This document shows, one piece after another, positions 39,591 through 60,671 of a stretch of 64,000 nt of DNA (its first letter is position 1; each line of letters begins with the position of its first letter). The position numbers and the translations under genes are program-made. The notes under the pieces are model-generated. The model had not been told where the DNA came from and did no database searches. It saw only the letters and a list, made by a program, of their open reading frames with translations. This DNA comes from a virus. The DNA lies in the IMG/VR virus record IMGVR_UViG_3300027896_001999, positions 2,470-66,469 of that record. One strand, given 5' to 3'.

Positions 39591-40507
39591 AAGAAAGGAG
39601 AACGAAGAATGAGTATTAAAATTAAGAACAGATTTAAAGGCACAGTAATTCTATCGGGAGAATATGAAAGTTTAAAGGATTGCTTAGAAAAAAATTCCGG
39701 AGCCGATTTATCCGGAGCCGATTTACCCGGAGCCAATTTATACAGAGCCAATTTATCCGAAGCCGATTTATCCGGAGCCGATTTATCCGGAGCCAATTTA
39801 CACAGAGCCAATTTACACAGAGCCGATTTATCCGGAGCCTATTTAACCGAAGCCTATTTAACCGGAGCCTATTTAACCGGAGCCAATTTATCCGGAGTCT
39901 ATTTAACCGGGGCCGATTTAACCGGAGCCCATTTATCCGGAGTCTGTTTAACCGGAGCCGATTTATCCGGAGCCCATTTAACCGGAGCCAATTTATCCGG
40001 AGCCAATTTAACCGGAACCAATTTATCCGGAGCCTATTTAACCGGAGCCAATTTAACCGGAGCCAAAGGAATAATCCTTCCCGTAATTTCAATATCCGGT
40101 ACTCGAAATAATTTTTATTATTACAATGGGATCGTAAGAATCGGATGCGAAAGCCATACAGTTGATGAATGGATGGAAAAATACGTAAAAATCGGCGCGC
40201 AGGCAAATTACACGGAATCGGAAATCTCTGAATATTATCAGTATATTAAATTTTGCGCGGGAATTAAAGTTTAAGTATTCCTAAGAAATAAAAGAAAGGA
40301 GAACGAAGAATGAACGAAAAGAAACAAGAAGCTATAAAGCACTATAAAGAGATGATAGAGTGGGCCAAGTGGATTCTGTTGTGATGGTTACTGGTCCAGG
40401 ATGAATGGTGCGAAATCTTGGGGTCAGTGGGTGCCCTATGCAGTTCTTGTCTTACGGCATATAGAAGAACATGGTTAAATAATAAAAGAAAGGAGAACGA
40501 AGAATGA
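39577..40507 (+). repeat. Start-associated direct repeat, three copies (39577-39612, 40278-40313, 40481-40507)
   Basis: TTCCTAAGAAATAAAAGAAAGGAGAACGAAGAATGA twice, last 27 bp a third time. Confidence 0.92.
39609..40274 (+). CDS. Pentapeptide repeat protein
   Basis: More than 20 tandem A[DNYH]L[ST]G-type units; C-terminal IGCE.H...W domain. Confidence 0.92.
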   Translation: MSIKIKNRFKGTVILSGEYESLKDCLEKNSGADLSGADLPGANLYRANLSEADLSGADLSGANLHRANLHRADLSGAYLTEAYLTGAYLTGANLSGVYLTGADLTGAHLSGVCLTGADLSGAHLTGANLSGANLTGTNLSGAYLTGANLTGAKGIILPVISISGTRNNFYYYNGIVRIGCESHTVDEWMEKYVKIGAQANYTESEISEYYQYIKFCAGIKV

Positions 40508-44822: not shown

Positions 44823-46421
44823 ATGACAATAAGCCAAATGCAAATACAGAGCTTCATGAAATTCTTTACCGGAGCCCAACATTCATACGGAGAATGTCTA
44901 TACAGTGGTGAAAAGATAAAGGGAAAGTTGACAGGGGCATGTAGGACGATCACAGATAAGCTCATAACCATCAAAGATTACAAAGATCATTTAGAAGGAG
45001 TCCGGGGTCTTGGTATCGTTCCTATATCAGAAAACAGTAAATGCCTTTTTTCTGTAATAGACATAGACATATATGATGCGGATCTTTCTATCTATACAGA
45101 AGCCATAGAAAGAGGTGGTCTTCCCCTTATCCCATTCAGAAGCAAGAGTGGTGGTCTTCATATCTATATGTTTCTTAAGGAAGAAGAAAATGCTAAAGAT
45201 GTGATAGAAGTGATGCGTAAATTTTCTTTTCTTTTATCCATAGACTCTTTCGTTAGAAATAAGAAGAATGGGTTGGTAGAAATTTTTCCAAAGCAAACGA
45301 AACTGAAGAAGGGTGATGCGGGAAGTTGGATCAATCTTCCGTACTATGGAGCGGTTGAATCTTCCCAATACGCGATTCGGAATGGTTCTCCGTTATCTTT
45401 TAATGATTCTTTAACCTATATCGCAGAGAAGCAAACATCTTTGAGGCAGGTGGAAGACTTATTTGAAAACATGGTGTTCAATGATGCTCCACCTTGTCTA
45501 CAGCTATTGTATCTTCTTAACCCATTTGATTCTAATTCAAATCGCAATAATTTTTTATTTTCATTCGGAGTTTATCTAAAAAAGAAAGATGAAGATTTCT
45601 TTGAACAAAGTCTTAAGGAAATCAATGATAGCATAAGAGAACCATTGGAAGAGAAAGAAGTAGAAAGGACCATTCTTTCTTCTTTACGTAAAAAAGATTA
45701 TGTCTATAAGTGTAAAGAAAGTCCCTGTAAAGAATTCTGTAATAAAAAGGAATGCAGGAACCGGGAGTTCGGAATAGGAAAGAACGAGGGGTATTTCAGT
45801 TCTGTAGAAGTGGGTATTCTTTATCAATACAAGACTTCTTCCCCATACTACGAATGGGAAGTCCGTCTACAAGGGCAAGAGGAATTTAAGAGGTTACGAT
45901 TTAAGACTGAGGATGAAATAATAAGACAAGACATGTTCTTACGGCTGTGCATGAGGGAACTGTTTGAACTCCCTTCTAAGTTGAAACAGTCCGAATGGTT
46001 TGACAAAGTAAATAGTGCATTGAAAGCCATAGTTCCCGTGGTCGTAGAAAGGGAAGATGACACATCACCCTTTATGATGATTAAGAGCATGATAACGGAA
46101 TTCTTAACCGGTCGTGCTATGGCGGAAACTAAGGATCAAATAGAAGCCAAGAGAGTATTCTATGATAACACTACTGATGATTACCTATTTCGTACAAAGG
46201 ATTTATTGGAATATGTCTATGTTCAAAAGCAGTTCAAATACTTCAATCCATCGGAACTCCATGGCATATTAAAAGATCTGGGTTGCAGTTCAAGGAAACT
46301 AACTACTGAATCCAGGAAACAATTGAGAGTGACAACTATGGGTAAGAAAAACTTAGATCTGTACGAAGCGAAAGAATTATTCTCACCCGACTTTTCTAAA
46401 TTCTCAGAAGAAGATTTTTAA
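44823..46421 (+). CDS. AEP-family primase
   Basis: HL.G..GLGIVP, IDID, RSKSGGLHIY, EIFPKQ, INLPY, PPC and C-terminal Cys cluster. Confidence 0.88.
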   Translation: MTISQMQIQSFMKFFTGAQHSYGECLYSGEKIKGKLTGACRTITDKLITIKDYKDHLEGVRGLGIVPISENSKCLFSVIDIDIYDADLSIYTEAIERGGLPLIPFRSKSGGLHIYMFLKEEENAKDVIEVMRKFSFLLSIDSFVRNKKNGLVEIFPKQTKLKKGDAGSWINLPYYGAVESSQYAIRNGSPLSFNDSLTYIAEKQTSLRQVEDLFENMVFNDAPPCLQLLYLLNPFDSNSNRNNFLFSFGVYLKKKDEDFFEQSLKEINDSIREPLEEKEVERTILSSLRKKDYVYKCKESPCKEFCNKKECRNREFGIGKNEGYFSSVEVGILYQYKTSSPYYEWEVRLQGQEEFKRLRFKTEDEIIRQDMFLRLCMRELFELPSKLKQSEWFDKVNSALKAIVPVVVEREDDTSPFMMIKSMITEFLTGRAMAETKDQIEAKRVFYDNTTDDYLFRTKDLLEYVYVQKQFKYFNPSELHGILKDLGCSSRKLTTESRKQLRVTTMGKKNLDLYEAKELFSPDFSKFSEEDF

Positions 46422-48182: not shown

Positions 48183-48359
48183 ATGAGCGATAAAAAAGTG
48201 TACTTGGGGGATTCAGTGTACGTAGAATACGATGGGTATAATTTTGTACTGACCACAGATAATGGTATGGGTGCATCAAACACCATTGTACTGGAACCGA
48301 CTGTGTACGTTGCACTAACAAGATTCGTAAACAATTTAAAGAATAAGGAAGGTGGATGA
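48183..48359 (+). CDS. 58-aa phage protein
   Basis: Hand translation MSDKKVYLGDSVYVEYDGYNFVLTT...IVLEP.V..AL; GAGG RBS. Confidence 0.65.
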   Translation: MSDKKVYLGDSVYVEYDGYNFVLTTDNGMGASNTIVLEPTVYVALTRFVNNLKNKEGG

Positions 48360-48360
48360 T

Positions 48361-49254
48361 ATGCCAATAACAAAAGATTTACTTGACAAGAAAAACTACA
48401 TGATCGGAATTCCGTCGAGAGAACGGAGCTTCATGATAAGGGAAAGAAAAGGTTTGTGGTTACACACAGACCCCATTGAGAAATACCCTGTGAGAGCCAT
48501 TGTGAGAGAAAGTGAAAAGGACAATTATGAAATGGTTCCGGCCATACTTTGTCCAGACTCTTGCACTATTGCTAACAAGAGACAAAGATTAATGGAATAC
48601 GCCATTGCTTGCAATTACGAATTTCTTTTTATCATAGATGACGACGTGGCGCTCTATTATAGGGATGAAAATTTATCCTCTAAATACACATCCAAGCGAG
48701 AGACATTTCAGGCTGAGGATTGCTTTAATCGTATTCTTTATGAAGCGATTATGCTCTGTGGGGAGAAGGCACCGATAATTGGACTTCCGTTGAAGTTGGG
48801 CAGTTTCGGACTGAAATGGAAATTCCCTAAAAATATTCCCGTAATAAGATTCGTCTGTTATCATGTTCCAACTCTGGTGAAAGAAAACATAAAGATGGAT
48901 GGCATGGGGACGATGTTCATGAGTGACAGATTCACTCACCTTTCACTTTTGAACAAAGGGTATTATTCACTAAGCAACTGCGGGTATGCAGTTGGGGATC
49001 AGGGGACTGGATATAAAGGAGGGTGCAGTGTAACCAGAACAGTCGAACTCCAGTCTGCCTCGGCCATTGCTTTAAGAGATGCTTTTCCGAATCATGTTGA
49101 ATTGAAAATTAAAAACAATGGGCTCTGGGACGCGGAAAGATTGGACTGCCGTATCTCATGGCGGAAGTTCTTAAAAGAAGGAGAAAGCAATTTCCTACCA
49201 GCAGAGGAAGGGAAAAGATTAATCGAAAGCGAGGGGTATAGATGCAGAATATAG
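48361..49254 (+). CDS. GT-A fold glycosyltransferase (TET/JBP-associated-like) 1
   Basis: IPSRER, I..KRQ, IDDD and GGCS..R motifs. Confidence 0.78.
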   Translation: MPITKDLLDKKNYMIGIPSRERSFMIRERKGLWLHTDPIEKYPVRAIVRESEKDNYEMVPAILCPDSCTIANKRQRLMEYAIACNYEFLFIIDDDVALYYRDENLSSKYTSKRETFQAEDCFNRILYEAIMLCGEKAPIIGLPLKLGSFGLKWKFPKNIPVIRFVCYHVPTLVKENIKMDGMGTMFMSDRFTHLSLLNKGYYSLSNCGYAVGDQGTGYKGGCSVTRTVELQSASAIALRDAFPNHVELKIKNNGLWDAERLDCRISWRKFLKEGESNFLPAEEGKRLIESEGYRCRI

Positions 49255-50105
49255 ATTTCAACCAAAAATTCTTAGACAAGTTCATTGAAGTCGCGATAGA
49301 GAGACATAAGATATATAAGCTCCGAGAAAGTGGAGCTCCCCGTCCTTGGACGAACAACGAAATTCTACGGGACTTCTTCTTTTGCAATCTCTTTCGGCAA
49401 TACGACAGATGTTCAAAATGGATTATAGAAAACATAGTTCCTTATGAAAGGTGGGATCTACTGGTTCTGTATCGTTTCATTTCAACGTACACCACATTTG
49501 AACATATAAAAGCATCATGCCAATTAGACAACTTACCACTTATCCATGATCTATTAAGAGAAATGAAAAATGCAGATTTGAAGATCTTCAGCGGATGTTT
49601 TATCCGGAATCCCAGAATCCCGGGTGGTTGGACTGAAACTTACAATGTTCCATTTGTTTTGATAGACGAAATAAAGAAAGATGGCACCATTGAATTGGTA
49701 ATAGCTCTTAATTCTTTAAAGAAGATGGTAGACTACTTTTCAAGATTCCCTGGTACAAAATTCTTCATGGGGTACGAATACGCATGTGATCTTGAATACA
49801 CCAAGTTCTTTAACCCAACCGATAAATTTACGTGGGCGAACATGGGGCCAGGAGCGATGAGAGGCATGAGTCTACTGCTCCATGGGAGTGCTTTCCAAAA
49901 GATGAAGCAAGACTTTTGGTTAGAGAAAGCACAAGAGCTACTGGGAATCATGACCAAGGAAGTCGGTTCCATATTCCCTGAGGAAACCATCACTATGCGG
50001 GAAGTAGAACATCAATTATGCGAATTCCAAAAGTATGTAAAATATGGTTCTATGTCCGAGGGAAGTGAAAGAGTGAAGCATAGAAAATTCAACGGGAGTA
50101 TATAG
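49242..50105 (+). CDS. 5-hmdU DNA kinase-like helical protein (aGPT-Pplase1 family)
   Basis: ERH.IY..RE.G.P.PWT..ILR..FFCN..R..DR.S.WI, FM.YE..CDL, GPGA.RG, E..LCEF.KY. Confidence 0.85.
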   Translation: MQNIDFNQKFLDKFIEVAIERHKIYKLRESGAPRPWTNNEILRDFFFCNLFRQYDRCSKWIIENIVPYERWDLLVLYRFISTYTTFEHIKASCQLDNLPLIHDLLREMKNADLKIFSGCFIRNPRIPGGWTETYNVPFVLIDEIKKDGTIELVIALNSLKKMVDYFSRFPGTKFFMGYEYACDLEYTKFFNPTDKFTWANMGPGAMRGMSLLLHGSAFQKMKQDFWLEKAQELLGIMTKEVGSIFPEETITMREVEHQLCEFQKYVKYGSMSEGSERVKHRKFNGSI

Positions 50106-50107
50106 AT

Positions 50108-50983
50108 ATGAAACACGCAACAATAATTCCGTCTAAAGACCGGTCTCATCTATTACTTAGATATGCGGATCTGCCGGCACGGAGATTCAATCATCCAATA
50201 TTCAATACAAAGTTATGGGTGAGCGAAAAGGAGTACGACACGTATAAGAAAGTGGTAGACGAACTGCGATTGGAACACGTGGAACTGATCGCCGACGATC
50301 ATGCTAATATAGCGGAATGCCGTCAGAATATCTTAATGTATTGCCACGAACATGGGTATGATTATTTATTCTCGCCGGATGACGATGTGCGGTTCCATGC
50401 AAGAGAAAGTAATTGGAAAGTAGTTCCATTAGAGCTGGAGGAAAACGTAAATCTCTTCAATCACATGTCGTCTATCTGTAGTACGGAAGTTCCTCTGGTT
50501 TCACTTCGATACAGATTCATGGTCCAGAATTGCAATACAGCTTATGAGAAGAATTATAAAATCATTATTTTGTATTTCGTTCACGTTCCAACGTTGGTGA
50601 ACAATGGCGTTTCTTTTAAGCATGAAGGGTTTCAATTCTACGAAGACAAATATATGCAACTACAACTCTATTCAAAGGGATTCCGTTCCTGCACTTCATC
50701 TATGTATGCGACATCTCAACGTCAGCCAGATAACACAGAAGGAGGTTGCTTCGCTTATAGAAACATAGAAGAGGCTAATCGTCACTCGCGGATTATGCAC
50801 GAAGAGTGGCCCGAGTACTCGAAGCTGGTGATTAAGAATAGTTGGAAGGAAGGTCCAAGGTTAGAGAACATATGGTACTTCAAAAAATTTTTAAAACCAG
50901 ATGAATTACGGTATTTCCCAAAAGAACAGATGGAACGATTTATGGGAAGAGAAGGTGCTTATAGGCTGGAGGTCCCTGTATGA
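50108..50983 (+). CDS. GT-A fold glycosyltransferase (TET/JBP-associated-like) 2
   Basis: IPSKDR, I...RQ.I, DDD, ED..MQLQL...G, GGC..YR; paralogue of 48361. Confidence 0.8.
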   Translation: MKHATIIPSKDRSHLLLRYADLPARRFNHPIFNTKLWVSEKEYDTYKKVVDELRLEHVELIADDHANIAECRQNILMYCHEHGYDYLFSPDDDVRFHARESNWKVVPLELEENVNLFNHMSSICSTEVPLVSLRYRFMVQNCNTAYEKNYKIIILYFVHVPTLVNNGVSFKHEGFQFYEDKYMQLQLYSKGFRSCTSSMYATSQRQPDNTEGGCFAYRNIEEANRHSRIMHEEWPEYSKLVIKNSWKEGPRLENIWYFKKFLKPDELRYFPKEQMERFMGREGAYRLEVPV

Positions 50984-51437
50984 TCTATGCGGAAGTGGTA
51001 GTTGGTAGAAGAAAAATAAGAGCCATAGAATACGAAGTCAATGAGAATGGGTGCTGGATCTGTACGAGTCACTGCTTAGCTTATGGGTATCCTGTAATAG
51101 AATTAAACGGAACTAAGAAGTTAAGCCGAGTTGTCTTGGAACGGTCTTTGGGAAGAAAAATAAAAGAAGGGCTTTGGGCTCTTCATAAGTGCAACAATCG
51201 TGCATGTATCAATCCAGAGCATCTGTATGAAGGCACTCCGGAGGAAAATACAAAGGATTCTATGGAAGCGGGAACCCTTGTTTCTAAGCTGACAGAAGCT
51301 CGGGTCTTAGAAATAAGAAAGTCTACTTTGTCTGGTTCTAAGTTGGGGAAGATTTATGGGTGACCAGAAAATGCATCAATGAGATTAAAAGAAGAGACAC
51401 ATGGAAGCACGTTAAGGAGAAACAAGATGGAGTATAG
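50980..51437 (+). pseudogene. HNH endonuclease with frameshifted C-terminal HTH
   Basis: GCW, LHKCNN..C.NP.HL..G...N; 1-bp deletion at ~51360; the shifted frame continues VTRKCINEIKRRDTWKH like paralogue 60189. Confidence 0.75.
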
Positions 51438-52503
51438 TAAAGAACGAGTAGAACAACTACGAAAAAACAAACTGACTGTCTTCGAAGACATTCATTATTT
51501 AAAAGTCGAACCCAGTCATATCTGTAATCGTAAATGCAATTTCTGTGGAATCTCCCACAGAGAGTCTGGCATGATGACTATGGAAACTTTTAATAATCTT
51601 ATAAATGGAGCAGGGAATTCCCTGAAAAGAATAGACTTTAGTCTTCAGGGAGAACCGACACTCAATCCCTTGCTACCAGACATGATTGAATTGGTTAGGA
51701 ACGATTATCCTGATTGCCAAATAATGGTTATATCTAACATGGACAAGATCAAAAGAGAAGGGATGGAATGGTTGTTTGATTTATATGACAGAGGTCTCAA
51801 TATTTTACAAGCAGATTTATATGACAACGACACAGAGCGATGGTTCTTAGATGATGTAAGAAAACATAAAGAGCACTTTATAAAACGAGACATAGCACTG
51901 CACAATGTATATGAAACTAACGATAACCCTTTCCACTATGCTGGACCAAAGAAGAAGGATATTTATTATATAGTAGAACGATCTGACCATGATGATATGG
52001 TTGGTAAAAAGAATTCGGCACGCAATATCCATACTTGGGGAGGCAATCTTCCTTTAGAGAAATGGGAACCCTATGGATTATCTTTATCTGACTTCCCTAT
52101 GAAAAAGAAATGTACGGAGCCTTTGAAATATGCCACTATCCGTTTCAATGGCGAGGTTGCTCCTTGTTGCTTTGACGGCGCATGCACAACGACTATTGGA
52201 AATGTTAATGACGAACCCATAAATGACATCTGGAAAGGCAAGAATTTCCAAATGATAAGATTAGTAGCTTCCCTCGGAATGCGAGAAATGATGCTCCCAT
52301 GTATTCTATGTAATAGATTAAGTTTTAGAATTGGTTTGAATCCATACTGGGGGAAAGAGTACTCTTTACAAGAAGTGATAGAAACTCTTAGAACTATCCA
52401 AGTTTTATACAAAGAAGAATCTTTATATGGAAATCTAATGGAATTGAGATCTACTCGTAATCTTCCTCTACATATACAGGAGTTGATAAGCAATGCTCGA
52501 TAA
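51427..52503 (+). CDS. Radical SAM enzyme with SPASM/twitch domain 1
   Basis: CNRKCNFC, GEP.L.P, C.EP....G.V..CC.D, C..C; start chosen by alignment to the paralogue. Confidence 0.9.
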   Translation: MEYSKERVEQLRKNKLTVFEDIHYLKVEPSHICNRKCNFCGISHRESGMMTMETFNNLINGAGNSLKRIDFSLQGEPTLNPLLPDMIELVRNDYPDCQIMVISNMDKIKREGMEWLFDLYDRGLNILQADLYDNDTERWFLDDVRKHKEHFIKRDIALHNVYETNDNPFHYAGPKKKDIYYIVERSDHDDMVGKKNSARNIHTWGGNLPLEKWEPYGLSLSDFPMKKKCTEPLKYATIRFNGEVAPCCFDGACTTTIGNVNDEPINDIWKGKNFQMIRLVASLGMREMMLPCILCNRLSFRIGLNPYWGKEYSLQEVIETLRTIQVLYKEESLYGNLMELRSTRNLPLHIQELISNAR

Positions 52504-53545
52504 AGAAAGAGTAGCCCATCTGAAGTCAAAGAATCTTACCGTATTCGAGGAAGTCTACAGCCTTCGCTTAGAGGTCTACAGCGGATGCAATCTAAACTGC
52601 TGGTCATGTGGTAGAGGAAGGACGAACCACGGTACGATGGATTTCTTTACGTTTGAAAAGATATTATCAGACCTCACTGATCGTTGCACTCGTATGGAAT
52701 TTGGGGTTCAGGGGGAACCATCCCTTCATCCGGGGTTGGTAGATTTTGTAGCAATGGCAAGAAAAAGATTACCCAAGGCACAACTACTTATAATTTCAAA
52801 TACAGAGGCTTTCCGTAATGATGGGCACTATACAGTAAAAAGTCTATTTGATGCAGGGTTGAACTTCCTTCACGCAGACATTTATAACGAAAGACAAATG
52901 GAGTGGATCTCAAAGTTGAACATAGAGGGAGTGTCTATTCAAGACTACTATAAACAGAATGTAAATGCCTTTTCTTACAAGGGAAATGCCCAAAAGACCA
53001 TGATTATCACAAACGAAATTGAAGGGTTCGGAGCTACAAGAAGCGCCACAAGAGTTCCCCATAATTTTGGTGGGAACCTTCCATATATGCATTGGCAAAA
53101 ATTGATAGGGATGCAGATAAAGGATTTTCCATTAGAAAAGACTTGCGTAGAACCTCTCAAGTATATGACAGTCAACTGGAACGGAGACGTAAACTTGTGT
53201 TGCCGGGAAGGGGCGAAAGCTGTCGTAGTTGGAAACACCAACAACGAAAACCTGCAAGACATATGGCAGGGTGAAGCAATGCAGAAGATACGACTATTGC
53301 TATGTAATAAGAAACGAAAGGATATCATACCTTGCGTACTGTGTAATGCAAGATCTTTCCGTTCAGGGCTCTATCCATATTGGGGACCGTCGTACGGATA
53401 TGAGGATATAATAAAAGACATTGATAAATATTTTTCTTTAAACAAAAAAGAACACATGCATGAAAATCTATTGAGTCTGTTGAGCATAAAAGAATTACCC
53501 ATACATATAACAAATTATCTAAGGAGGAAGGACGAATGCAGTTAA
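52493..53545 (+). CDS. Radical SAM enzyme with SPASM/twitch domain 2
   Basis: CNLNCWSC, GEPSLHP, C.EP....G.V..CC.E, C..C. Confidence 0.9.
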   Translation: MLDKERVAHLKSKNLTVFEEVYSLRLEVYSGCNLNCWSCGRGRTNHGTMDFFTFEKILSDLTDRCTRMEFGVQGEPSLHPGLVDFVAMARKRLPKAQLLIISNTEAFRNDGHYTVKSLFDAGLNFLHADIYNERQMEWISKLNIEGVSIQDYYKQNVNAFSYKGNAQKTMIITNEIEGFGATRSATRVPHNFGGNLPYMHWQKLIGMQIKDFPLEKTCVEPLKYMTVNWNGDVNLCCREGAKAVVVGNTNNENLQDIWQGEAMQKIRLLLCNKKRKDIIPCVLCNARSFRSGLYPYWGPSYGYEDIIKDIDKYFSLNKKEHMHENLLSLLSIKELPIHITNYLRRKDECS

Positions 53546-54126
53546 AAGATTATTTAGAAAAATATGATACCTTGAAGAACATCAAGCGTTTCAACATGGA
53601 AACGGTGATAGAGCCTCAAAATCTTTGCGACCATGGACATGGTGTCGGAACTTTGTATTATCTATTGTGCAAAGAAATGGGGGTGCTTATTTCCGTAGAC
53701 ACTTTGTTTATGGTCATGAATCACGACTTCGCGGAAGCATACACAAGTGACCTGAACAGAAGGGTGAAGGATAAGACAAAAAAGACTTCAGAAGCATGGA
53801 AAGTAATAGAAAATTCCAATCTTCCTTTGTCGTTGATTTGTTGGACAGATGAATCCATAAAGAGTTCATTGGGTGGGTTTGATGAATCTATCCGGTACAT
53901 GGTATTTCAAATCGCAGATGAATGGGAAGCCATGCAATATTGCTTAAGGGAAGTCAACAAAGGTAATTCTTATATGAAAAGACCTCTTGGGGTCTACATG
54001 GAAATGGTTAATGAAAAGATAAGATCCCTTAGATCTTGCGGTAAGAATTATGAAATATGCTGTGACTATCTTCTTTTACTTATAGAAAGAATAGACGTAG
54101 AATACGACTTGGGGGCAAATATATGA
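53536..54126 (+). CDS. HD-domain nucleotide hydrolase (YfbR-like)
   Basis: L..IKRF, N..DH, HDFAE..T.D, AD..E. Confidence 0.85.
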   Translation: MQLKDYLEKYDTLKNIKRFNMETVIEPQNLCDHGHGVGTLYYLLCKEMGVLISVDTLFMVMNHDFAEAYTSDLNRRVKDKTKKTSEAWKVIENSNLPLSLICWTDESIKSSLGGFDESIRYMVFQIADEWEAMQYCLREVNKGNSYMKRPLGVYMEMVNEKIRSLRSCGKNYEICCDYLLLLIERIDVEYDLGANI

Positions 54127-54959
54127 ATCACATTATTGATGAATATGAAAGCATGAATAAAGCATACTTATCTCTTCTCTTCCAATTACTTAATAGTCCC
54201 ACATATATTTCCACCACTCGGAAAGGGGAAACCATATCCGAGATGCTTAATGCGGGGTTCATTTTGAAAGATCCTACAAAATGTTTTGCCACTTGCAGGA
54301 ATATGTCTTTAAAGTATCTTGATGGGGAATTGGAGTTCTATTTAAGTGGAAGCCCTTATCTTAAGGACATAACCAAGCACTCTAAGTTCTGGGAGAAAGT
54401 CACAGATGATGATAGAACAGTGAATTCCAATTATGGGAAACTACTATTCTATGACAGAAACCATCACAACTACACTCAGTTTGAATATGCTAAACGAATG
54501 TTGTTGGAAAATCCAGACAGTAAGAAAGCGGTCATGGTCATTTACAGTAAAGAAAACGCACACGACAGCCAGGACAATCCATGTACGATGTTCCTGCAAT
54601 TTTTCATAAGGGAAAAGAAACTCCACCTCATAGTAAAGATGCGCTCATCAGACATATGGTATGGTCTTCCGTACGATGTACCATTTTTTGTTTTCGTTCA
54701 GTACAAGATGTTGCATGCTCTTGAAAGATATTATCCATCACTACGAATGGGTCTGTACAACCATCAGTCTGGTAGCCTTCATCTATACAGTAGGAATGCA
54801 TCGGTGGCTCACAGTACTCTGAAAAGAGATAGAGAGCTTTGGGAAAATCTAAGTCTGACTGAGGAGTTCTTAGATTTTTGTGAATCGATTCAAACAGAGC
54901 TCTTTATCAAGTATATTAAAACCAAAGTAGGGGAGGGGAAAGGAGATGTCGAATATTGA
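54123..54959 (+). CDS. Thymidylate synthase homologue, probable dCMP (hydroxy)methylase
   Basis: PCT..LQF, MRSSDIWYGLPYDV (Asp at the E. coli ThyA Asn177 position), H..GSLHLY. Confidence 0.82.
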   Translation: MNHIIDEYESMNKAYLSLLFQLLNSPTYISTTRKGETISEMLNAGFILKDPTKCFATCRNMSLKYLDGELEFYLSGSPYLKDITKHSKFWEKVTDDDRTVNSNYGKLLFYDRNHHNYTQFEYAKRMLLENPDSKKAVMVIYSKENAHDSQDNPCTMFLQFFIREKKLHLIVKMRSSDIWYGLPYDVPFFVFVQYKMLHALERYYPSLRMGLYNHQSGSLHLYSRNASVAHSTLKRDRELWENLSLTEEFLDFCESIQTELFIKYIKTKVGEGKGDVEY

Positions 54960-55224
54960 AAGAATCATAGACCATAGGAATGGGAAATTGTCTTATGTAA
55001 CCAAATCTTTGGTATTCCCCCCAGACGGAAGTGTGAAAAAGATTTGTTCAAAATGTAAAAAATCTTTACCAATAGAAAGTGGATTCCATGTGACTTCACG
55101 TATAAAAGGAGACACGAAATACTTGTATAATCATTGCAAGTGTAAAGAGTGTAGAAGAGCAGAAAGAAGAAGCTACTATAAAGATGGACCAAAGATAATA
55201 TCAAAAGGAGAAAAGAAGAAATGA
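54946..55224 (+). CDS. Zn-ribbon protein
   Basis: K.CSKC...LP...FH...CKEC. Confidence 0.6.
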   Translation: MSNIERIIDHRNGKLSYVTKSLVFPPDGSVKKICSKCKKSLPIESGFHVTSRIKGDTKYLYNHCKCKECRRAERRSYYKDGPKIISKGEKKK

Positions 55225-55700
55225 CTATACTCAAACCAAAAGATGTGGAAACTCTAATTCAAATGGCTCATGCTCAAACTCGTTTCTCTATGTGCCTTAA
55301 AAAGAAGGTTGGAGCAGCTCTATACAGCACCACCGATAGAGCCATCTACGGATTAGGTCATGGGGGACCAAAGATTCCATGTAAAGAATGTGTAAGAAAA
55401 AAGTATGAATGGACTCAAGATGGGTGTTGGTCCATTCATGCAGAGATACGTGCAATATTTGATTATTTCAAAAAAGAAGGGTACAACAATCCATTCATTT
55501 CTTGTGTCATGTTCACCACCCATGGTCCTTGTGATGGGTGTTTGAAATATATGAACTATTTTGGGATAGGTTCTGTTGTCTACGATATCCCTTATCACAA
55601 TGACTATTCAAAGTGGGTTGGAAAGATAAGAGTATTCTCTAAAGAAGAATATCTTAAGAACTGTTACGACATAGACGAACCATGGGAGCCAAAAGAATGA
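55221..55700 (+). CDS. dCMP deaminase
   Basis: C.K.KVGA, HAE..A and PC..C zinc motifs. Confidence 0.88.
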   Translation: MTILKPKDVETLIQMAHAQTRFSMCLKKKVGAALYSTTDRAIYGLGHGGPKIPCKECVRKKYEWTQDGCWSIHAEIRAIFDYFKKEGYNNPFISCVMFTTHGPCDGCLKYMNYFGIGSVVYDIPYHNDYSKWVGKIRVFSKEEYLKNCYDIDEPWEPKE

Positions 55701-57541
55701 AAACATATTATGACTTCAGAAAAGATCCATTGATAGCAGTTGATATAGAGTCTAAAGACCCTATGTTGAAAGAGAAAGGACCTGGAGTGTACAGAAAAGA
55801 CGGATATGTGATTGGGTGTTCTTTTTCAAATGGACCAGTGTCCGAATACTGTCCTATAAAACATCCTGACACTACCACGGAAGAATCTGAAAAGAATCGT
55901 AAGTATATGGAAGAGCAGTTATCGGGGACCAACAGAAAAGTCTTTGCCAATGGCTTATACGACCTTGATTGGTTAATAAACTTCGAAGGATTCAAAGTCA
56001 ATGGTACGTATGAAGATGTACAAATAGCAGAACCAATACTTGATGAATACAGAAGATCCTACTCTTTGAATTCATTGTCGGGTATCTATTTACAAGATGC
56101 CAAAGGCTATTCCCCTATAAGAGAGTATTGTCTACAGCAAGGATGGAAGATGGGTCCTAAGGATCAAGGAATAAATCATCTATGGAAAATTCCCTCTACT
56201 GTGGTAGAAGACTATGCAAGAAAGGACTCGGAACTGACTTTAAAGATATTCAAACTACAAGAAGAAGCCTTAAAAGAAAAGCATTTAGATTTTATATACA
56301 ATATGGAAATGAAGCTATTTCCTCTTCTATTACAAATGAGAAAGAACGGAGTTCGTTTGAATATGGGGAAATTGACTAAGACAGGGTTGGCCTTGGCGGA
56401 CTTGGCTTATGATATTCAAGAAGAATTGGAAAAGATCGATGGATCAGAAGTGAATCCTAATTCGTCCAATGACTTAGAAAGAATATTTATGAAGCTCCAT
56501 CTCCCTGTGCATTACGGTGAACCAACAGACTTGATGATGATGAAAGGTCTTACCAGGGGAAATCCTCGTTTTGATAAGAATACTTTGAACAGAATAGATA
56601 ATCCCATCGTAAGAAAGATATTAGAGCTTCGCCATATAAAGACTCTCCTAAGTCTGTTCATAAATCAATACCCGGAGTTAGTGACGGACGACCGTCTTCA
56701 TTGTCAATTCAATCAATTAAGAAGTGATGAATATGGAACGGTGACAGGAAGGTTCTCTTCTTCTAATCCAAATCTACAACAAGTGAGTTCTAAAGAAGAA
56801 GAAGACTATCTCCATTCCAACAGTGAAATACTGAGTGGATTAGTTATAAGAAAGTTGTTTGAACCTGAAGAAGGTTGTGATTGGCTACAAGGTGACTGGA
56901 ATCAGATAGAGTACAGACTAATAGCACATTATGCTTTGGGGGAAGGTTCAGAAAAGATAAGGAAAAGATACAATGAAGATCCCAATACAGACTATCACAG
57001 TGAACTTGGAATTATGACGGGAATAACTAATAGAAAGACTATCAAGACTCTGAACTTCGGAGCGGCTTACTCTATGGGTGCAAGACGGATGGCAGAAACT
57101 TATAGTTGGGATCTTGAAGAAGCCCGAGAAGTCTATAAGATGTATCACGACAAAGTCCCATTCATAAAAGAGACCAGCAACAGAGTTGGTATGAAGGCAA
57201 AGAGAGTTGGCTTCATAAGAACCATATGCGGTAGAAAGGCAAGAATCCCTTCTGAAGACAAGTCGTATGTAATGTTCAATAGACTAATTCAAGGGAGTGC
57301 TGCTGATATTATGAAGAAGGCTATGGTAGACGCTTATGAGGCAGGAATATTTGAAACTTTGGCACCTCATTTAACCATTCATGATGAATTGGATTGTAGT
57401 ATCCCACGTACAAAGGAAGGGACCGAAGCCGGTAAAGAATTAAAGCACATAATGGAAAATTGCGTAAAACTAAAAGTTCCCATCATAGCCAATTTTAAAA
57501 TTGGTCCAAATTGGGGAGAACTAAAAAATTGGGAGGAGTAA
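55697..57541 (+). CDS. polA: DNA polymerase family A (3'-5' exonuclease plus polymerase)
   Basis: AVDIE, TGRFSSSNPNLQQ, DWNQIEYR, KTLNFG..Y.MG, N.LIQGSAAD..K, IHDE. Confidence 0.95.
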   Translation: MKTYYDFRKDPLIAVDIESKDPMLKEKGPGVYRKDGYVIGCSFSNGPVSEYCPIKHPDTTTEESEKNRKYMEEQLSGTNRKVFANGLYDLDWLINFEGFKVNGTYEDVQIAEPILDEYRRSYSLNSLSGIYLQDAKGYSPIREYCLQQGWKMGPKDQGINHLWKIPSTVVEDYARKDSELTLKIFKLQEEALKEKHLDFIYNMEMKLFPLLLQMRKNGVRLNMGKLTKTGLALADLAYDIQEELEKIDGSEVNPNSSNDLERIFMKLHLPVHYGEPTDLMMMKGLTRGNPRFDKNTLNRIDNPIVRKILELRHIKTLLSLFINQYPELVTDDRLHCQFNQLRSDEYGTVTGRFSSSNPNLQQVSSKEEEDYLHSNSEILSGLVIRKLFEPEEGCDWLQGDWNQIEYRLIAHYALGEGSEKIRKRYNEDPNTDYHSELGIMTGITNRKTIKTLNFGAAYSMGARRMAETYSWDLEEAREVYKMYHDKVPFIKETSNRVGMKAKRVGFIRTICGRKARIPSEDKSYVMFNRLIQGSAADIMKKAMVDAYEAGIFETLAPHLTIHDELDCSIPRTKEGTEAGKELKHIMENCVKLKVPIIANFKIGPNWGELKNWEE

Positions 57542-58215
57542 TGGAAAAAGTCAAATCGTGTCTTGTCACAACGAGTTTGGTTGGAGCTGTGAAATGGAGT
57601 ATGACCGCCCCAAATATCGTCATTAAAGACGACAGAGGTGGCGATGGTCATTTGACATGGAGGGAAAAGGCCATTAAAGATTTAGAAAACACTTTGAACA
57701 GAGTCAAAGGAACTTTCCCAAAAGAAGCCGAACAGGGAATGGTGTTTGAAAAAATGGTTTACAATAATGCCAATAAGGATAAGCTGACAGGAACAGAAAA
57801 ATTTCAAAGAGTGTGCAAGGAAGTGAAAGGGTATGAATTCTATAAGAAAGGTGGTATAGAAGAAACCATTCAAGGGGAAAAGTGTTATCTGTACGCAAAA
57901 TATGATGCCATAGTAAAACTGCCAGAAGTGAAGTTGAAAGATATAAAGACCACCGGTTCATACAGTCCTGGTAAGTACTTGAATGGGTTTCAGCATAAAT
58001 TGTATTGTCTTATTTCTGGGGCAAACGAGTTCGACTATGTGATCGCAGAGTGGCTTCAATACCCTGTAATCAAAGATATATACATAGAAAGATTCATAGT
58101 AGAAGACAGAGAAAAGATGAAGAATGAAGTGATAACAGAGATTGAAGAGTGTTTCAATGTAATTAAGGACCTGGAGTTATGGGAAACTTATAGAACAAAA
58201 TTTTGCTTGTATTAG
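57541..58215 (+). CDS. PD-(D/E)xK nuclease-like protein
   Basis: AKYDA...DIKTT...QH.LY. Confidence 0.72.
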   Translation: MEKVKSCLVTTSLVGAVKWSMTAPNIVIKDDRGGDGHLTWREKAIKDLENTLNRVKGTFPKEAEQGMVFEKMVYNNANKDKLTGTEKFQRVCKEVKGYEFYKKGGIEETIQGEKCYLYAKYDAIVKLPEVKLKDIKTTGSYSPGKYLNGFQHKLYCLISGANEFDYVIAEWLQYPVIKDIYIERFIVEDREKMKNEVITEIEECFNVIKDLELWETYRTKFCLY

Positions 58216-60188: not shown

Positions 60189-60671
60189 ATGATCTATGCG
60201 GAAGTGGTCAGTTTAAGGAAAGGGTACAAAAGAAAATCCATTGAATACGAAGTCAATGAGAATGGGTGCTGGATCTGTACGAGTCATTACTTAAGAGATG
60301 GGTATCCTCAAATAGAGTCAAATAGAGAAATGAAAAACTTGAACCGAGTCGTCTTAGAACGGTCTTTGGGGAGAAAGATAAAAGAAGGGTTTGGGGCTCT
60401 TCATAAATGTGGCAACAGAGTATGCATCAATCCAGATCACATCTATGAAGGTTCTCGTGAAGACAATGCAAGGGATTCTAAAAGACATGGTACTTTCGTA
60501 CAAGGAGAAGATCATCCAAAATCTAAGTTGACGGAAGCTCAGGTCTTAGAGATAAGAAAATCCATTTTGTCTGGACCGGAGTTGGGTAAGATTTATGGTG
60601 TGGGAAGAGGTTGCATCAATAATATCAAAAGAAGAGTCACATGGAAACATCTTAAGGATCAACCATCATGA
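60189..60671 (+). CDS. HNH homing endonuclease with C-terminal HTH
   Basis: GCW, LHKCGN..C.NP.H...G...N..D, GE.HP.SKLTE.QV.EIR. Confidence 0.88.
   Translation: MIYAEVVSLRKGYKRKSIEYEVNENGCWICTSHYLRDGYPQIESNREMKNLNRVVLERSLGRKIKEGFGALHKCGNRVCINPDHIYEGSREDNARDSKRHGTFVQGEDHPKSKLTEAQVLEIRKSILSGPELGKIYGVGRGCINNIKRRVTWKHLKDQPS

Follow-up and report, generated by a model that had tools for sequence, protein, structure and literature searches.

Which pyrimidine is modified, and by what route, in a phage that pairs a cytosine-type thymidylate synthase (TS) homologue with genes known from thymidine-hypermodifying phages? The question is raised by a gene cluster at 48352-55700 of a 64,000-nucleotide stretch of viral DNA (hereafter the window), which makes up 64 kb of the 66,469-bp linear IMG/VR record IMGVR_UViG_3300027896_001999; the record has a completeness rating of 100%. 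The TS homologue very probably converts deoxycytidine monophosphate (dCMP) to 5-hydroxymethyl-dCMP (hm-dCMP), judging from its diagnostic residues. The deaminase encoded beside it is a candidate for the next step, the formation of a 5-hydroxymethyl-deoxyuridine (hm-dU) nucleotide, and the supposed kinase of the cluster proves to be a protein of another kind. As a whole, 48352-55700 is best explained as a phage DNA pyrimidine-hypermodification module; that it leads to hydroxymethyluracil by way of hm-dC nucleotides is about as likely as not.

A TS homologue bearing the marks of 5-hydroxymethyl-dCMP synthases

The TS homologue is encoded by a 278-amino acid (aa) open reading frame (ORF) at 54123-54959 on the plus strand. 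It matches Pfam Thymidylat_synt (PF00303) at E 2.2e-22 with a score of 79.9 bits against a cut-off of 24.3, and is the sole PF00303 gene in the complete genome, where no dihydrofolate reductase (DHFR), ThyX or second TS was found. The first-pass annotation of this DNA, made from the sequence alone, had aligned the peptide RSSDIWYGLPYDV, coded at 54642-54680 within this ORF, with ThyA, placing Asp at the site of Asn177, and had taken this Asp as the mark of a cytosine-type enzyme. The placement is confirmed. In a MAFFT alignment, Asp185 of the window enzyme falls on the TS Asn of the canonical T4-like td TS (motif RSVDVFLGLPFNI), and in a HMMER alignment (E 4.8e-22) it falls on the Asp of T4 dCMP hydroxymethylase (PDB 1b49). 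In PDB entries 6l18 and 6a9a, which we take to be D179N mutants, the column holds Asn; the T4 Asp is presumably residue 179. Every one of the 120 homologues compared, the best of 300 matches at E <= 0.001, has Asp at this position, and the residue does not vary in either of two curated alignments (21 and 28 sequences). By these alignments, Asp185 is no chance or assembly artefact.

Asp at the Asn177 site occurs in 5-methyl-dCMP synthases (XP12, PaMx74), in 5-hydroxymethyl-dCMP synthases (T4 gp42) and in 5-hydroxy-dCMP synthases (RB69 gp48, DLP3 gp80), the last kind described in bioRxiv 10.1101/2025.06.16.659550. In that preprint, N177D is tied to the dCMP substrate, an acidic residue at Leu143 to a hydroxymethyl product, and D169N to the 5-hydroxy synthases. 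In the window enzyme, Asp185 takes the place of E. coli ThyA Asn177 and Asp151 that of Leu143, and Asp177 is retained at the Asp169 site. Asp151 lies three residues N-terminal of the catalytic Cys154 (Asp151-Asn-Pro-Cys154, then Thr155; 54573-54584) and Asp177 lies in the RSSD motif within RSSDIWYGLPYDV; both are invariant in the family alignments, and the D169N change is not present. Asp185 and Asp151 together with the unchanged Asp177 thus give a hydroxymethyl-dCMP signature, not that of a methylase or of a 5-hydroxy-dCMP synthase. The equivalents of the TS-fold catalytic Cys, RSxD, E58 and H207/Y209 are invariant as well (C154, E69, R174, S175, D177, H220 and Y222).

Other comparisons agree in setting the cytosine-type assignment on firmer ground, placing the enzyme with the T4 gp42-type synthases. 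The residue following the catalytic Cys gives Cys-His in TS, Cys-Asn in five deoxyuridine monophosphate (dUMP) hydroxymethylases of phages proven to contain 5-hydroxymethyluracil (hmU), and Cys-Pro in the PaMx74 5-methylcytosine (5mC) synthase; the window enzyme and T4 gp42 have in common a Cys-Thr pair and the motif NSNYG. In searches of solved structures, T4 dCMP hydroxymethylase (E 4.8e-22) and the CMP hydroxymethylase MilA (3.6e-21) lead any TS by eight orders of magnitude, the canonical TS following at 1.6e-13 or worse. A maximum-likelihood tree of 25 rows groups gp42 with the window family (99/99) and PaMx74 with td (100/98), the dUMP hydroxymethylases forming a clade of their own (100/99). 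All ten dUMP-type hydroxymethylases examined, those of SPO1, SP10, ViI, phiW-14, M6-like, Epa5, phiRSL1, Sonora, PhiJL001 and nACB2, have Asn together with Cys-Asn. Since the window enzyme has Asp and Cys-Thr and falls in a separate clade, it does not belong with the dUMP hydroxymethylases of SPO1 gp29 type.

Coupling of a deaminase to the synthase

On the plus strand, 54123-55700 takes in three ORFs. The TS homologue comes first and a Cys-rich zinc-ribbon ORF of 92 aa (54946-55224) second; the third (55221-55700) encodes a zinc deaminase belonging to the dCMP-deaminase family. Directly downstream lies a family A DNA polymerase, PolA (55682-57541, plus strand; Pfam DNA_pol_A E 8.3e-60), whose closest cultured relatives have about 36% identity; a nucleotide search with 53500-56000 gave no cultured-phage match. 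The deaminase matches PF00383 at E 1.7e-10 (41.1 bits against a cut-off of 25) and aligns to PDB 2hvv, 1vq2 and 4p9c. Its H73, E75, C104 and C107, which make up the H-A-E and P-C-x-x-C zinc/catalytic motifs, are invariant.

Comparison with 27 related IMG/VR loci, six of which form a group referred to as group A, shows how closely the two enzymes are associated. The order TS-deaminase-PolA is kept in most loci. In 14 of the 27, synthase and deaminase form a fusion, and in nine more the deaminase lies directly downstream, in six as a gene immediately following and in three as a divergent deaminase ORF next to the synthase; the other four have none. It is thus adjacent or fused in 23 of 27 loci, as it is adjacent in the window. 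Synthase-deaminase fusions, in which the TS domain precedes the deaminase, also account for 50 of the best 120 synthase homologues. The window deaminase is an orthologue of the C-terminal domain of these fusions and has in common with it the motifs CLKKKVG, CxxCxR, HAE, THGPCDxC and YDxPY..DY..W. From these shared motifs and the shared order, the window arrangement appears to be a split version of the fusion, interrupted by the 92-aa ORF. This ORF overlaps both the synthase and the deaminase genes and has a weak PHROG HNH match (E 8e-4), no Pfam match and no homologue in the 27 related loci; it may be the remnant of a homing-endonuclease insertion that keeps the fusion halves apart.

Published work on such deaminases comes mainly from a New England Biolabs (NEB) preprint (bioRxiv 10.1101/2024.12.05.627091). 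It reports that modified metavirome contigs are enriched in dCMP-deaminase genes lying in cis with an Asp-type TS (104/149 vs 17/277), that >60% of 56 active deaminases prefer 5mdCTP and/or 5hmdCTP, and that XP12-type phages obtain dT nucleotides by deamination of 5-methyl-dC nucleotides. Modification selectivity is there called polyphyletic, so homology cannot decide the C5 preference of a given deaminase. The first-pass annotation had offered, as one of two options, that the adjacent deaminase turns hm-dCMP into hm-dUMP. The physical coupling of the two enzymes now adds to that idea and, together with the XP12 analogy, makes action on the hm-dC nucleotide produced by the synthase a serious candidate. 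A complex prediction for synthase and deaminase returned a score of 0.00, which is no answer and speaks neither for nor against binding.

A third subgroup of loci differs in the deaminase itself. In L038 (10842-11567) and L041 (10843-11523), the ORF after the Asp-type synthase is a deaminase homologue of 227-242 aa with a C-terminal extension; Pfam gave PF00383 only, and by eye the extension is MazG/PRA-PH-like, with acidic E..E / D..E motifs.

An HMUDK_hel protein without a kinase

The first-pass annotation had paired the synthase with a hydroxymethyl-uracil-type kinase. None is present. The gene in question, 49242-50105 on the plus strand, lies outside 54123-55700, to which that annotation was attached; its product covers positions 2-273 of the 281-position PF18723 profile (E 1.1e-41), its only Pfam match. 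PF18723 is named HMUDK_hel, for 5-hydroxymethyldeoxyuridine (5-hmdU) DNA kinase, helical domain, and the cultured homologues of the protein found by tblastn are M6 gp55-type proteins. In the reconstituted M6 pathway (PMC8989533), product was formed without gp55, and the kinase is gp54, a P-loop protein. The P-loop 5-hmdU DNA kinase has a Pfam family of its own, PF18748 (HMUDK_HMUD1), which at E <= 1 matches nothing in the complete genome; an M6-like, gp54-type kinase used as the query likewise found nothing there. In control searches the PF18748 model finds the kinase in phage Sonora, and the M6-like kinase matches at E 7.4e-18. As a stand-alone protein matching PF18723 only, in a genome free of PF18748, the HMUDK_hel protein is therefore not a kinase, and the proposal that the kinase family had switched to 5-hydroxymethylcytosine (hmC) has lost its object.

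The same architecture holds through the family, which has 4395 representatives at E <= 0.001. The best 150 of these matches are almost all stand-alone proteins of 260-330 aa, the longest having 476 aa and no kinase domain. No longer fused forms were found, in a search that counts as weak evidence, and a second scan with the HMUDK_hel alignment gave only the six contigs already found. Five cysteines (C48, C57, C119, C182, C260) are invariant. Amino-acid:DNA transferases of the M6 gp51 and PaMx11 gp46 kind have an essential Cys with a Glu near it and act on 5-PmdU, phosphorylated beforehand by a partner kinase, for which the window genome gave no match. The AlphaFold2 model of the window protein has a pLDDT of 87, and its top structural match is 8z2m, the PaMx11 gp46 5-PmdU glycinyltransferase (Z 10.3, rmsd 4.4, 217 residues aligned, 8% identity); with a helical protein and Z <13, this may reflect a shared fold only. 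A queuine-salvage protein and about 20 helix-hairpin-helix (HhH) DNA glycosylases come next. Foldseek gave no match for the model at E <= 0.001, and the protein has no sequence match to any PDB chain. The predicted fold would be that of the HhH DNA glycosylases, its closeness to the PaMx11 gp46 glycine:DNA transferase being only suggestive, and on this model the protein most likely binds DNA and flips bases, as an enzyme or as the partner of one.

HMUDK_hel and an Asn-type 'PCN' hydroxymethylase occur together in all six cultured phages examined, namely M6-like PAC9, Epa5, phiRSL1, Sonora, PhiJL001 and nACB2, which were drawn from 102 records matching HMUDK_hel. Three of five cultured phages with this pair (PhiJL001, phiRSL1 and nACB2; L058, L060, L061) have no PF18748 match at E <= 0.001. 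The HMUDK_hel family thus occurs without a recognised kinase in hmU-type phages too.

An HD phosphohydrolase of YfbR type

The gene preceding the synthase (53536-54126, plus strand; Pfam YfbR-like E 2.3e-12) encodes an HD protein, which had been suggested to remove a competing canonical nucleotide. As to the class of enzyme, the suggestion stands: the protein belongs with the nucleotide phosphohydrolases, and among them with the 5'-deoxynucleotidases of YfbR type. A profile built from nine members of the family matches E. coli YfbR (2paq) at E 6.5e-17 over 156 positions, OxsA at 1.5e-8 and the dATPase DatZ at 1.2e-4. R18, H33, H63, D64, E67, D72 and D128 are invariant in the family and align with the RW / H / HDxxE / D / D residues of YfbR, which we take to have roles in its active site. 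The fold search gave a YfbR match probability of 1.0, with YfbR, OxsA and DatZ not separable; since OxsA and DatZ are equal on fold, activity on triphosphates is possible.

YfbR-like HD genes adjoin the hydroxymethylase in M6-like phages too. Pairwise BLASTP between the window and M6-like HD proteins is not significant (E 0.69), the two being linked through Pfam and intermediate sequences, and tblastn against cultured phages gave one weak match. A dTMPase is a classical feature of hmU phages (PMC8989533). By analogy, the window protein as a deoxynucleoside monophosphate (dNMP) nucleotidase would fit this activity; aimed at dCMP, it would be counter-productive.

Glycosyltransferases and radical-SAM enzymes

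Two glycosyltransferase genes flank the HMUDK_hel gene on the plus strand. The product of 48352-49254 is a TAGT-like glycosyltransferase of GT-A type (PHROG 842 E 6e-18; Pfam TAGT, PF20691, E 6.8e-4), and its paralogue encoded at 50108-50983 belongs to the TAGT family (Pfam TAGT E 7.3e-7; PHROG 842 E 8e-20). Against the TAGT cut-off of 27.5 bits, the second scores above (29.8) and the first below (20.1); the first has an orthologue in all six group-A loci. Further downstream lie two paralogous radical S-adenosylmethionine (SAM) / SPASM enzymes, also on the plus strand, at 51379-52503 (SPASM E 1.1e-12, Radical_SAM E 5.6e-8) and 52493-53545 (SPASM E 2.2e-12, Radical_SAM E 6.5e-7). The former matched no NCBIfam equivalog above cut-off. 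A radical-SAM orthologue is present, in single copy, in four of the six group-A loci.

The number of these genes varies. The window has two of each kind and its relative L018 one of each; L021 and L023 are without a radical-SAM gene, and L021 carries a 428-aa ORF in the cluster instead.

Proposed pathway and alternatives

In the proposed pathway, the TS homologue would use methylene-tetrahydrofolate to convert dCMP to hm-dCMP in the manner of T4 gp42, a step well supported by the residues described above. The dedicated deaminase would then take the hm-dC nucleotide, as mono- or triphosphate, to the hm-dU nucleotide, which would be phosphorylated by host enzymes and inserted opposite A by the phage polymerase; part of the hm-dC pool may also be incorporated as hmC. 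The YfbR-type nucleotidase would strip the phosphate from a competing canonical dNMP, most plausibly dTMP. Once in DNA, the hydroxymethyl group would be elaborated by the TAGT-like glycosyltransferases, the HhH-fold HMUDK_hel protein and the radical-SAM/SPASM enzymes, and no kinase-made phospho-intermediate would be involved. By analogy, this would do with the hydroxymethyl group what XP12 and PaMx74 do with the methyl group in converting 5-methyl-dC to dT, and would replace the direct dUMP hydroxymethylase of the SPO1- and M6-type phages. The chances of this sequence of dCMP, hm-dCMP, hm-dU nucleotides and DNA tailoring, the variant with some hmC included, are put at about even. A bolder form is rather unlikely: one one-carbon-transfer enzyme would feed both modified pyrimidines, hm-dCMP going partly into DNA as hmC and partly by deamination to hm-dU, so that C and T positions would both be hydroxymethylated and then glycosylated, and the kinase-independent HhH-fold enzyme and SPASM radical-SAM enzymes would remodel them to one or more undescribed bases.

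Several observations weigh against a route through hm-dU. The genome yielded no dNMP kinase, which leaves the phosphorylation of either product to host enzymes. TAGT / PHROG 842 glycosyltransferases are best known from hmC systems; the TAGT family also takes in the base-J hmU glucosyltransferase. A single metagenome supplied ten of the 14 fusions, which are therefore not independent. The window deaminase is about equally distant from the cd proteins of PaMx74 (29 bits) and M6-like phage (22 bits), and could be an ordinary dCMP deaminase. The gp42 branch of the tree is very long. Of the 90 deaminases that NEB screened in vivo, only seven yielded 5hmdU, and all seven were linked to predicted 5mdCMP synthases, not 5hmdCMP synthases (bioRxiv 10.1101/2024.12.05.627091). 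MetaGPA enriches Asp-type TS and neighbouring deaminase and PolA genes in DNA with modified cytosine, which suggests that such phages place modified C itself in their DNA.

An arrangement like that of T4 would accommodate much of this and is possible, though doubtful. In it hm-dCMP would be phosphorylated and replace C, the glycosyltransferases would decorate hmC, an ordinary dCMP deaminase would divert part of the dCMP pool to dUMP, feeding host ThyA for dTTP, and the HMUDK_hel and radical-SAM proteins would act on hmC derivatives. T4 encodes both gp42 and a dCMP deaminase. The gp42-like signature of the TS homologue, the hmC-system type of its glycosyltransferases and the usefulness of feeding host ThyA in a phage without a TS of its own all fit, as do the enrichment of Asp-type TS in modified-cytosine DNA, the co-localisation of dCMP deaminases with TS and PolA in those contigs and the link of the 5hmdU-giving deaminases of the NEB screen to 5mC, not hmC, synthases. 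Yet fusion of two enzymes competing for one substrate is less expected than fusion of consecutive steps, and the cultured phages ATCCB and VPE25, in which an Asp-type enzyme lies beside a beta-glucosyltransferase, have no deaminase within 8 kb of the TS gene. Furthermore, the genome has no PRA-PH/MazG dCTPase, a YfbR-type nucleotidase acting on dCMP would destroy the substrate of the synthase, and HMUDK_hel pairs with dUMP-type hydroxymethylases in six of the six cultured phages examined.

Three readings change the reaction of the TS homologue itself and, even taken together, are unlikely. The enzyme could be a dCMP methyltransferase as in XP12, with the deaminase converting 5-methyl-dC to dT nucleotides and 5mC in DNA functionalised by the radical-SAM enzymes. 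The Asp at the Asn177 site and the order of TS(Asp) and deaminase are those of PaMx74 (the Asp also of XP12), no other TS is present in the genome, and deaminases of this context have been shown selective for 5mdCTP in the NEB work. The methylase reading was nevertheless rejected on the diagnostic residues and is given little chance: Asp151 at the Leu143 site is a hydroxymethylase mark, Cys-Thr and NSNYG are as in gp42 where PaMx74 has Cys-Pro, and PaMx74 groups with td (100/98), apart from the window family. Against the Pfam TS profile the window enzyme scores 80 bits and that of PaMx74 145; the window genome lacks DHFR where PaMx74 has frd beside cd; and the glycosyltransferases and the HMUDK_hel protein require a hydroxyl acceptor. 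Least credible is a 5-hydroxy-dCMP synthase of RB69 gp48 / DLP3 gp80 type, with sugars put on 5-hydroxycytosine. N177D, the L143D/E change and the nearby glycosyltransferases would suit it, but the diagnostic D169N is absent and Asp177 of RSSD invariant, and on this ground it too was rejected. About as improbable as the methylase is an enzyme that, despite its Asp, hydroxymethylates dUMP supplied by the deaminase, in the SPO1 order of dCMP, dUMP and hm-dUMP. Deaminase-hydroxymethylase coupling and downstream genes of hmU-phage type fit this order too. Against it stand the Asn and Cys-Asn of 10 out of 10 dUMP-type enzymes, the Asp in every one of the best 120 of 300 family matches, published mutagenesis in both enzyme types showing that this residue sets the preference for C or U, and the position of the deaminase as the second domain of the fusions.

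Comparison with known systems

T4 gp42 (1b49/1b5e) is the best solved-structure match of the window enzyme (E 4.8e-22). Both have Asp where ThyA has Asn177, an acidic side chain in place of Leu143, Cys-Thr and NSNYG, and they fall in one clade of the tree; identity is only about 30%. In T4 the hydroxymethyl group is glycosylated later on the DNA, as it would be in the pathway proposed for the window. The window deaminase is adjacent to the synthase, and fused in relatives, whereas T4 cd is presumably unlinked to gp42. Relative to T4, the window is without a dCTPase, a dNMP kinase, a phage TS and DHFR, and adds an HhH-fold protein, radical-SAM enzymes and the YfbR-type nucleotidase.

XP12 and PaMx74 have, like the window, an Asp-type TS followed by a dCMP-deaminase-family gene, and the conversion of a C5-modified dC to the corresponding dU nucleotide has been proposed for their deaminase and demonstrated in vitro for mSCD-B5 (bioRxiv 10.1101/2024.12.05.627091). 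The group made by their TS is methyl, not hydroxymethyl, and the enzyme clusters with canonical TS and has Cys-Pro. Deamination there gives ordinary T, whereas in the window it would give hmU. PaMx74 has DHFR and a MazG/PRA-PH-type dCTPase, the latter upstream of the synthase; the window has the HD nucleotidase and no DHFR, and a search of the genome for a MazG/PRA-PH dCTPase found none.

The thymidine clusters of M6, PaMx11, ViI, SP10 and phiW-14 have, like the window, an HMUDK_hel gene, a YfbR-like HD gene beside the hydroxymethylase and a dCMP deaminase in the genome (Lee et al., NAR 2021, PMC8989533). M6 also has a radical-SAM enzyme, gp53, which is SPL-like where the window enzymes are of SPASM type. 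The fold of the gp46/gp51-type amino-acid:DNA transferases may resemble that predicted for the window HMUDK_hel protein. These phages use Asn-type dUMP hydroxymethylases, whereas the window enzyme is Asp-type, and the P-loop 5-hmdU DNA kinase (PF18748), aGPT-Pplase2 and pyridoxal phosphate (PLP) or flavin adenine dinucleotide (FAD) enzymes; the window has neither the kinase nor a PLP enzyme and, unlike them, carries two TAGT-like glycosyltransferases. E. coli YfbR (2paq), which matches the HD protein by profile and fold, is about 16% identical to it.

Novelty and implications

To our knowledge, the hmU phages studied so far all make hm-dUMP directly from dUMP with an Asn-type enzyme. Should the window deaminase work on hm-dC nucleotides, the lineage would reach hmU by a different entry that avoids competition with host thymidylate synthase for dUMP. 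The deamination of 5hmdCTP that the 2024 preprint observed in vitro would then have a biological function as well. The presence of an HhH-fold protein, glycosyltransferases and SPASM radical-SAM enzymes in the absence of a DNA kinase points to a DNA hypermodification of uncertain chemistry. DNA hypermodifications shape resistance to restriction and CRISPR, and are a source of tools for epigenetic sequencing.

Parts of this picture have already been published or posted as preprints (including bioRxiv 10.1101/2024.12.05.627091): the change of Asn to Asp, the occurrence of TS homologues of Asp type in modified phages, and the association of these homologues with deaminases and PolA. Literature searches found no paper describing a route from hm-dCMP to hm-dUMP in phages, the NEB preprint being the nearest. 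Nor did they find described a gp42-type hydroxymethylase with a deaminase as the entry to a kinase-less M6-like downstream set, or a set of genes that combines a glycosyltransferase and an HhH protein with SPASM radical-SAM enzymes.

Genome setting and neighbouring genes

The record derives from an uncultured freshwater phage with a contractile-tail structural module encoded on the minus strand. In a search of sequencing runs, the DNA turned up in its probable source run and in no other. The replication and modification module occupies the plus strand and starts at about 35 kb; around the TS homologue its genes are closely spaced, some of them overlapping. Two HNH_3 homing-endonuclease-like genes, neither with a match in related loci, are inserted at 50980-51363 and 60189-60671 (E 3.3e-6). 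The first (plus strand; Pfam HNH_3 E 2.7e-7, PHROG HNH families down to E 2.5e-20) is probably outside the pathway.

In the early region, upstream of the cluster, the product of 39609-40274 is a pentapeptide-repeat protein of 221 aa (Pfam Pentapeptide E 2.8e-70) that might mimic DNA or serve in anti-defence. At 44823-46421 lies a primase with the archaeo-eukaryotic primase domain of TOTE conflict systems (E 1.5e-14) and PriCT_1, which adjoins a UvrD-like helicase in all related loci. Between PolA and an SNF2 helicase, 57511-58215 encodes a conserved 234-aa protein that is found in most related loci and has no Pfam match; by eye it contains a PD-(D/E)XK-like motif (YAKYDAI...KDIKTT).

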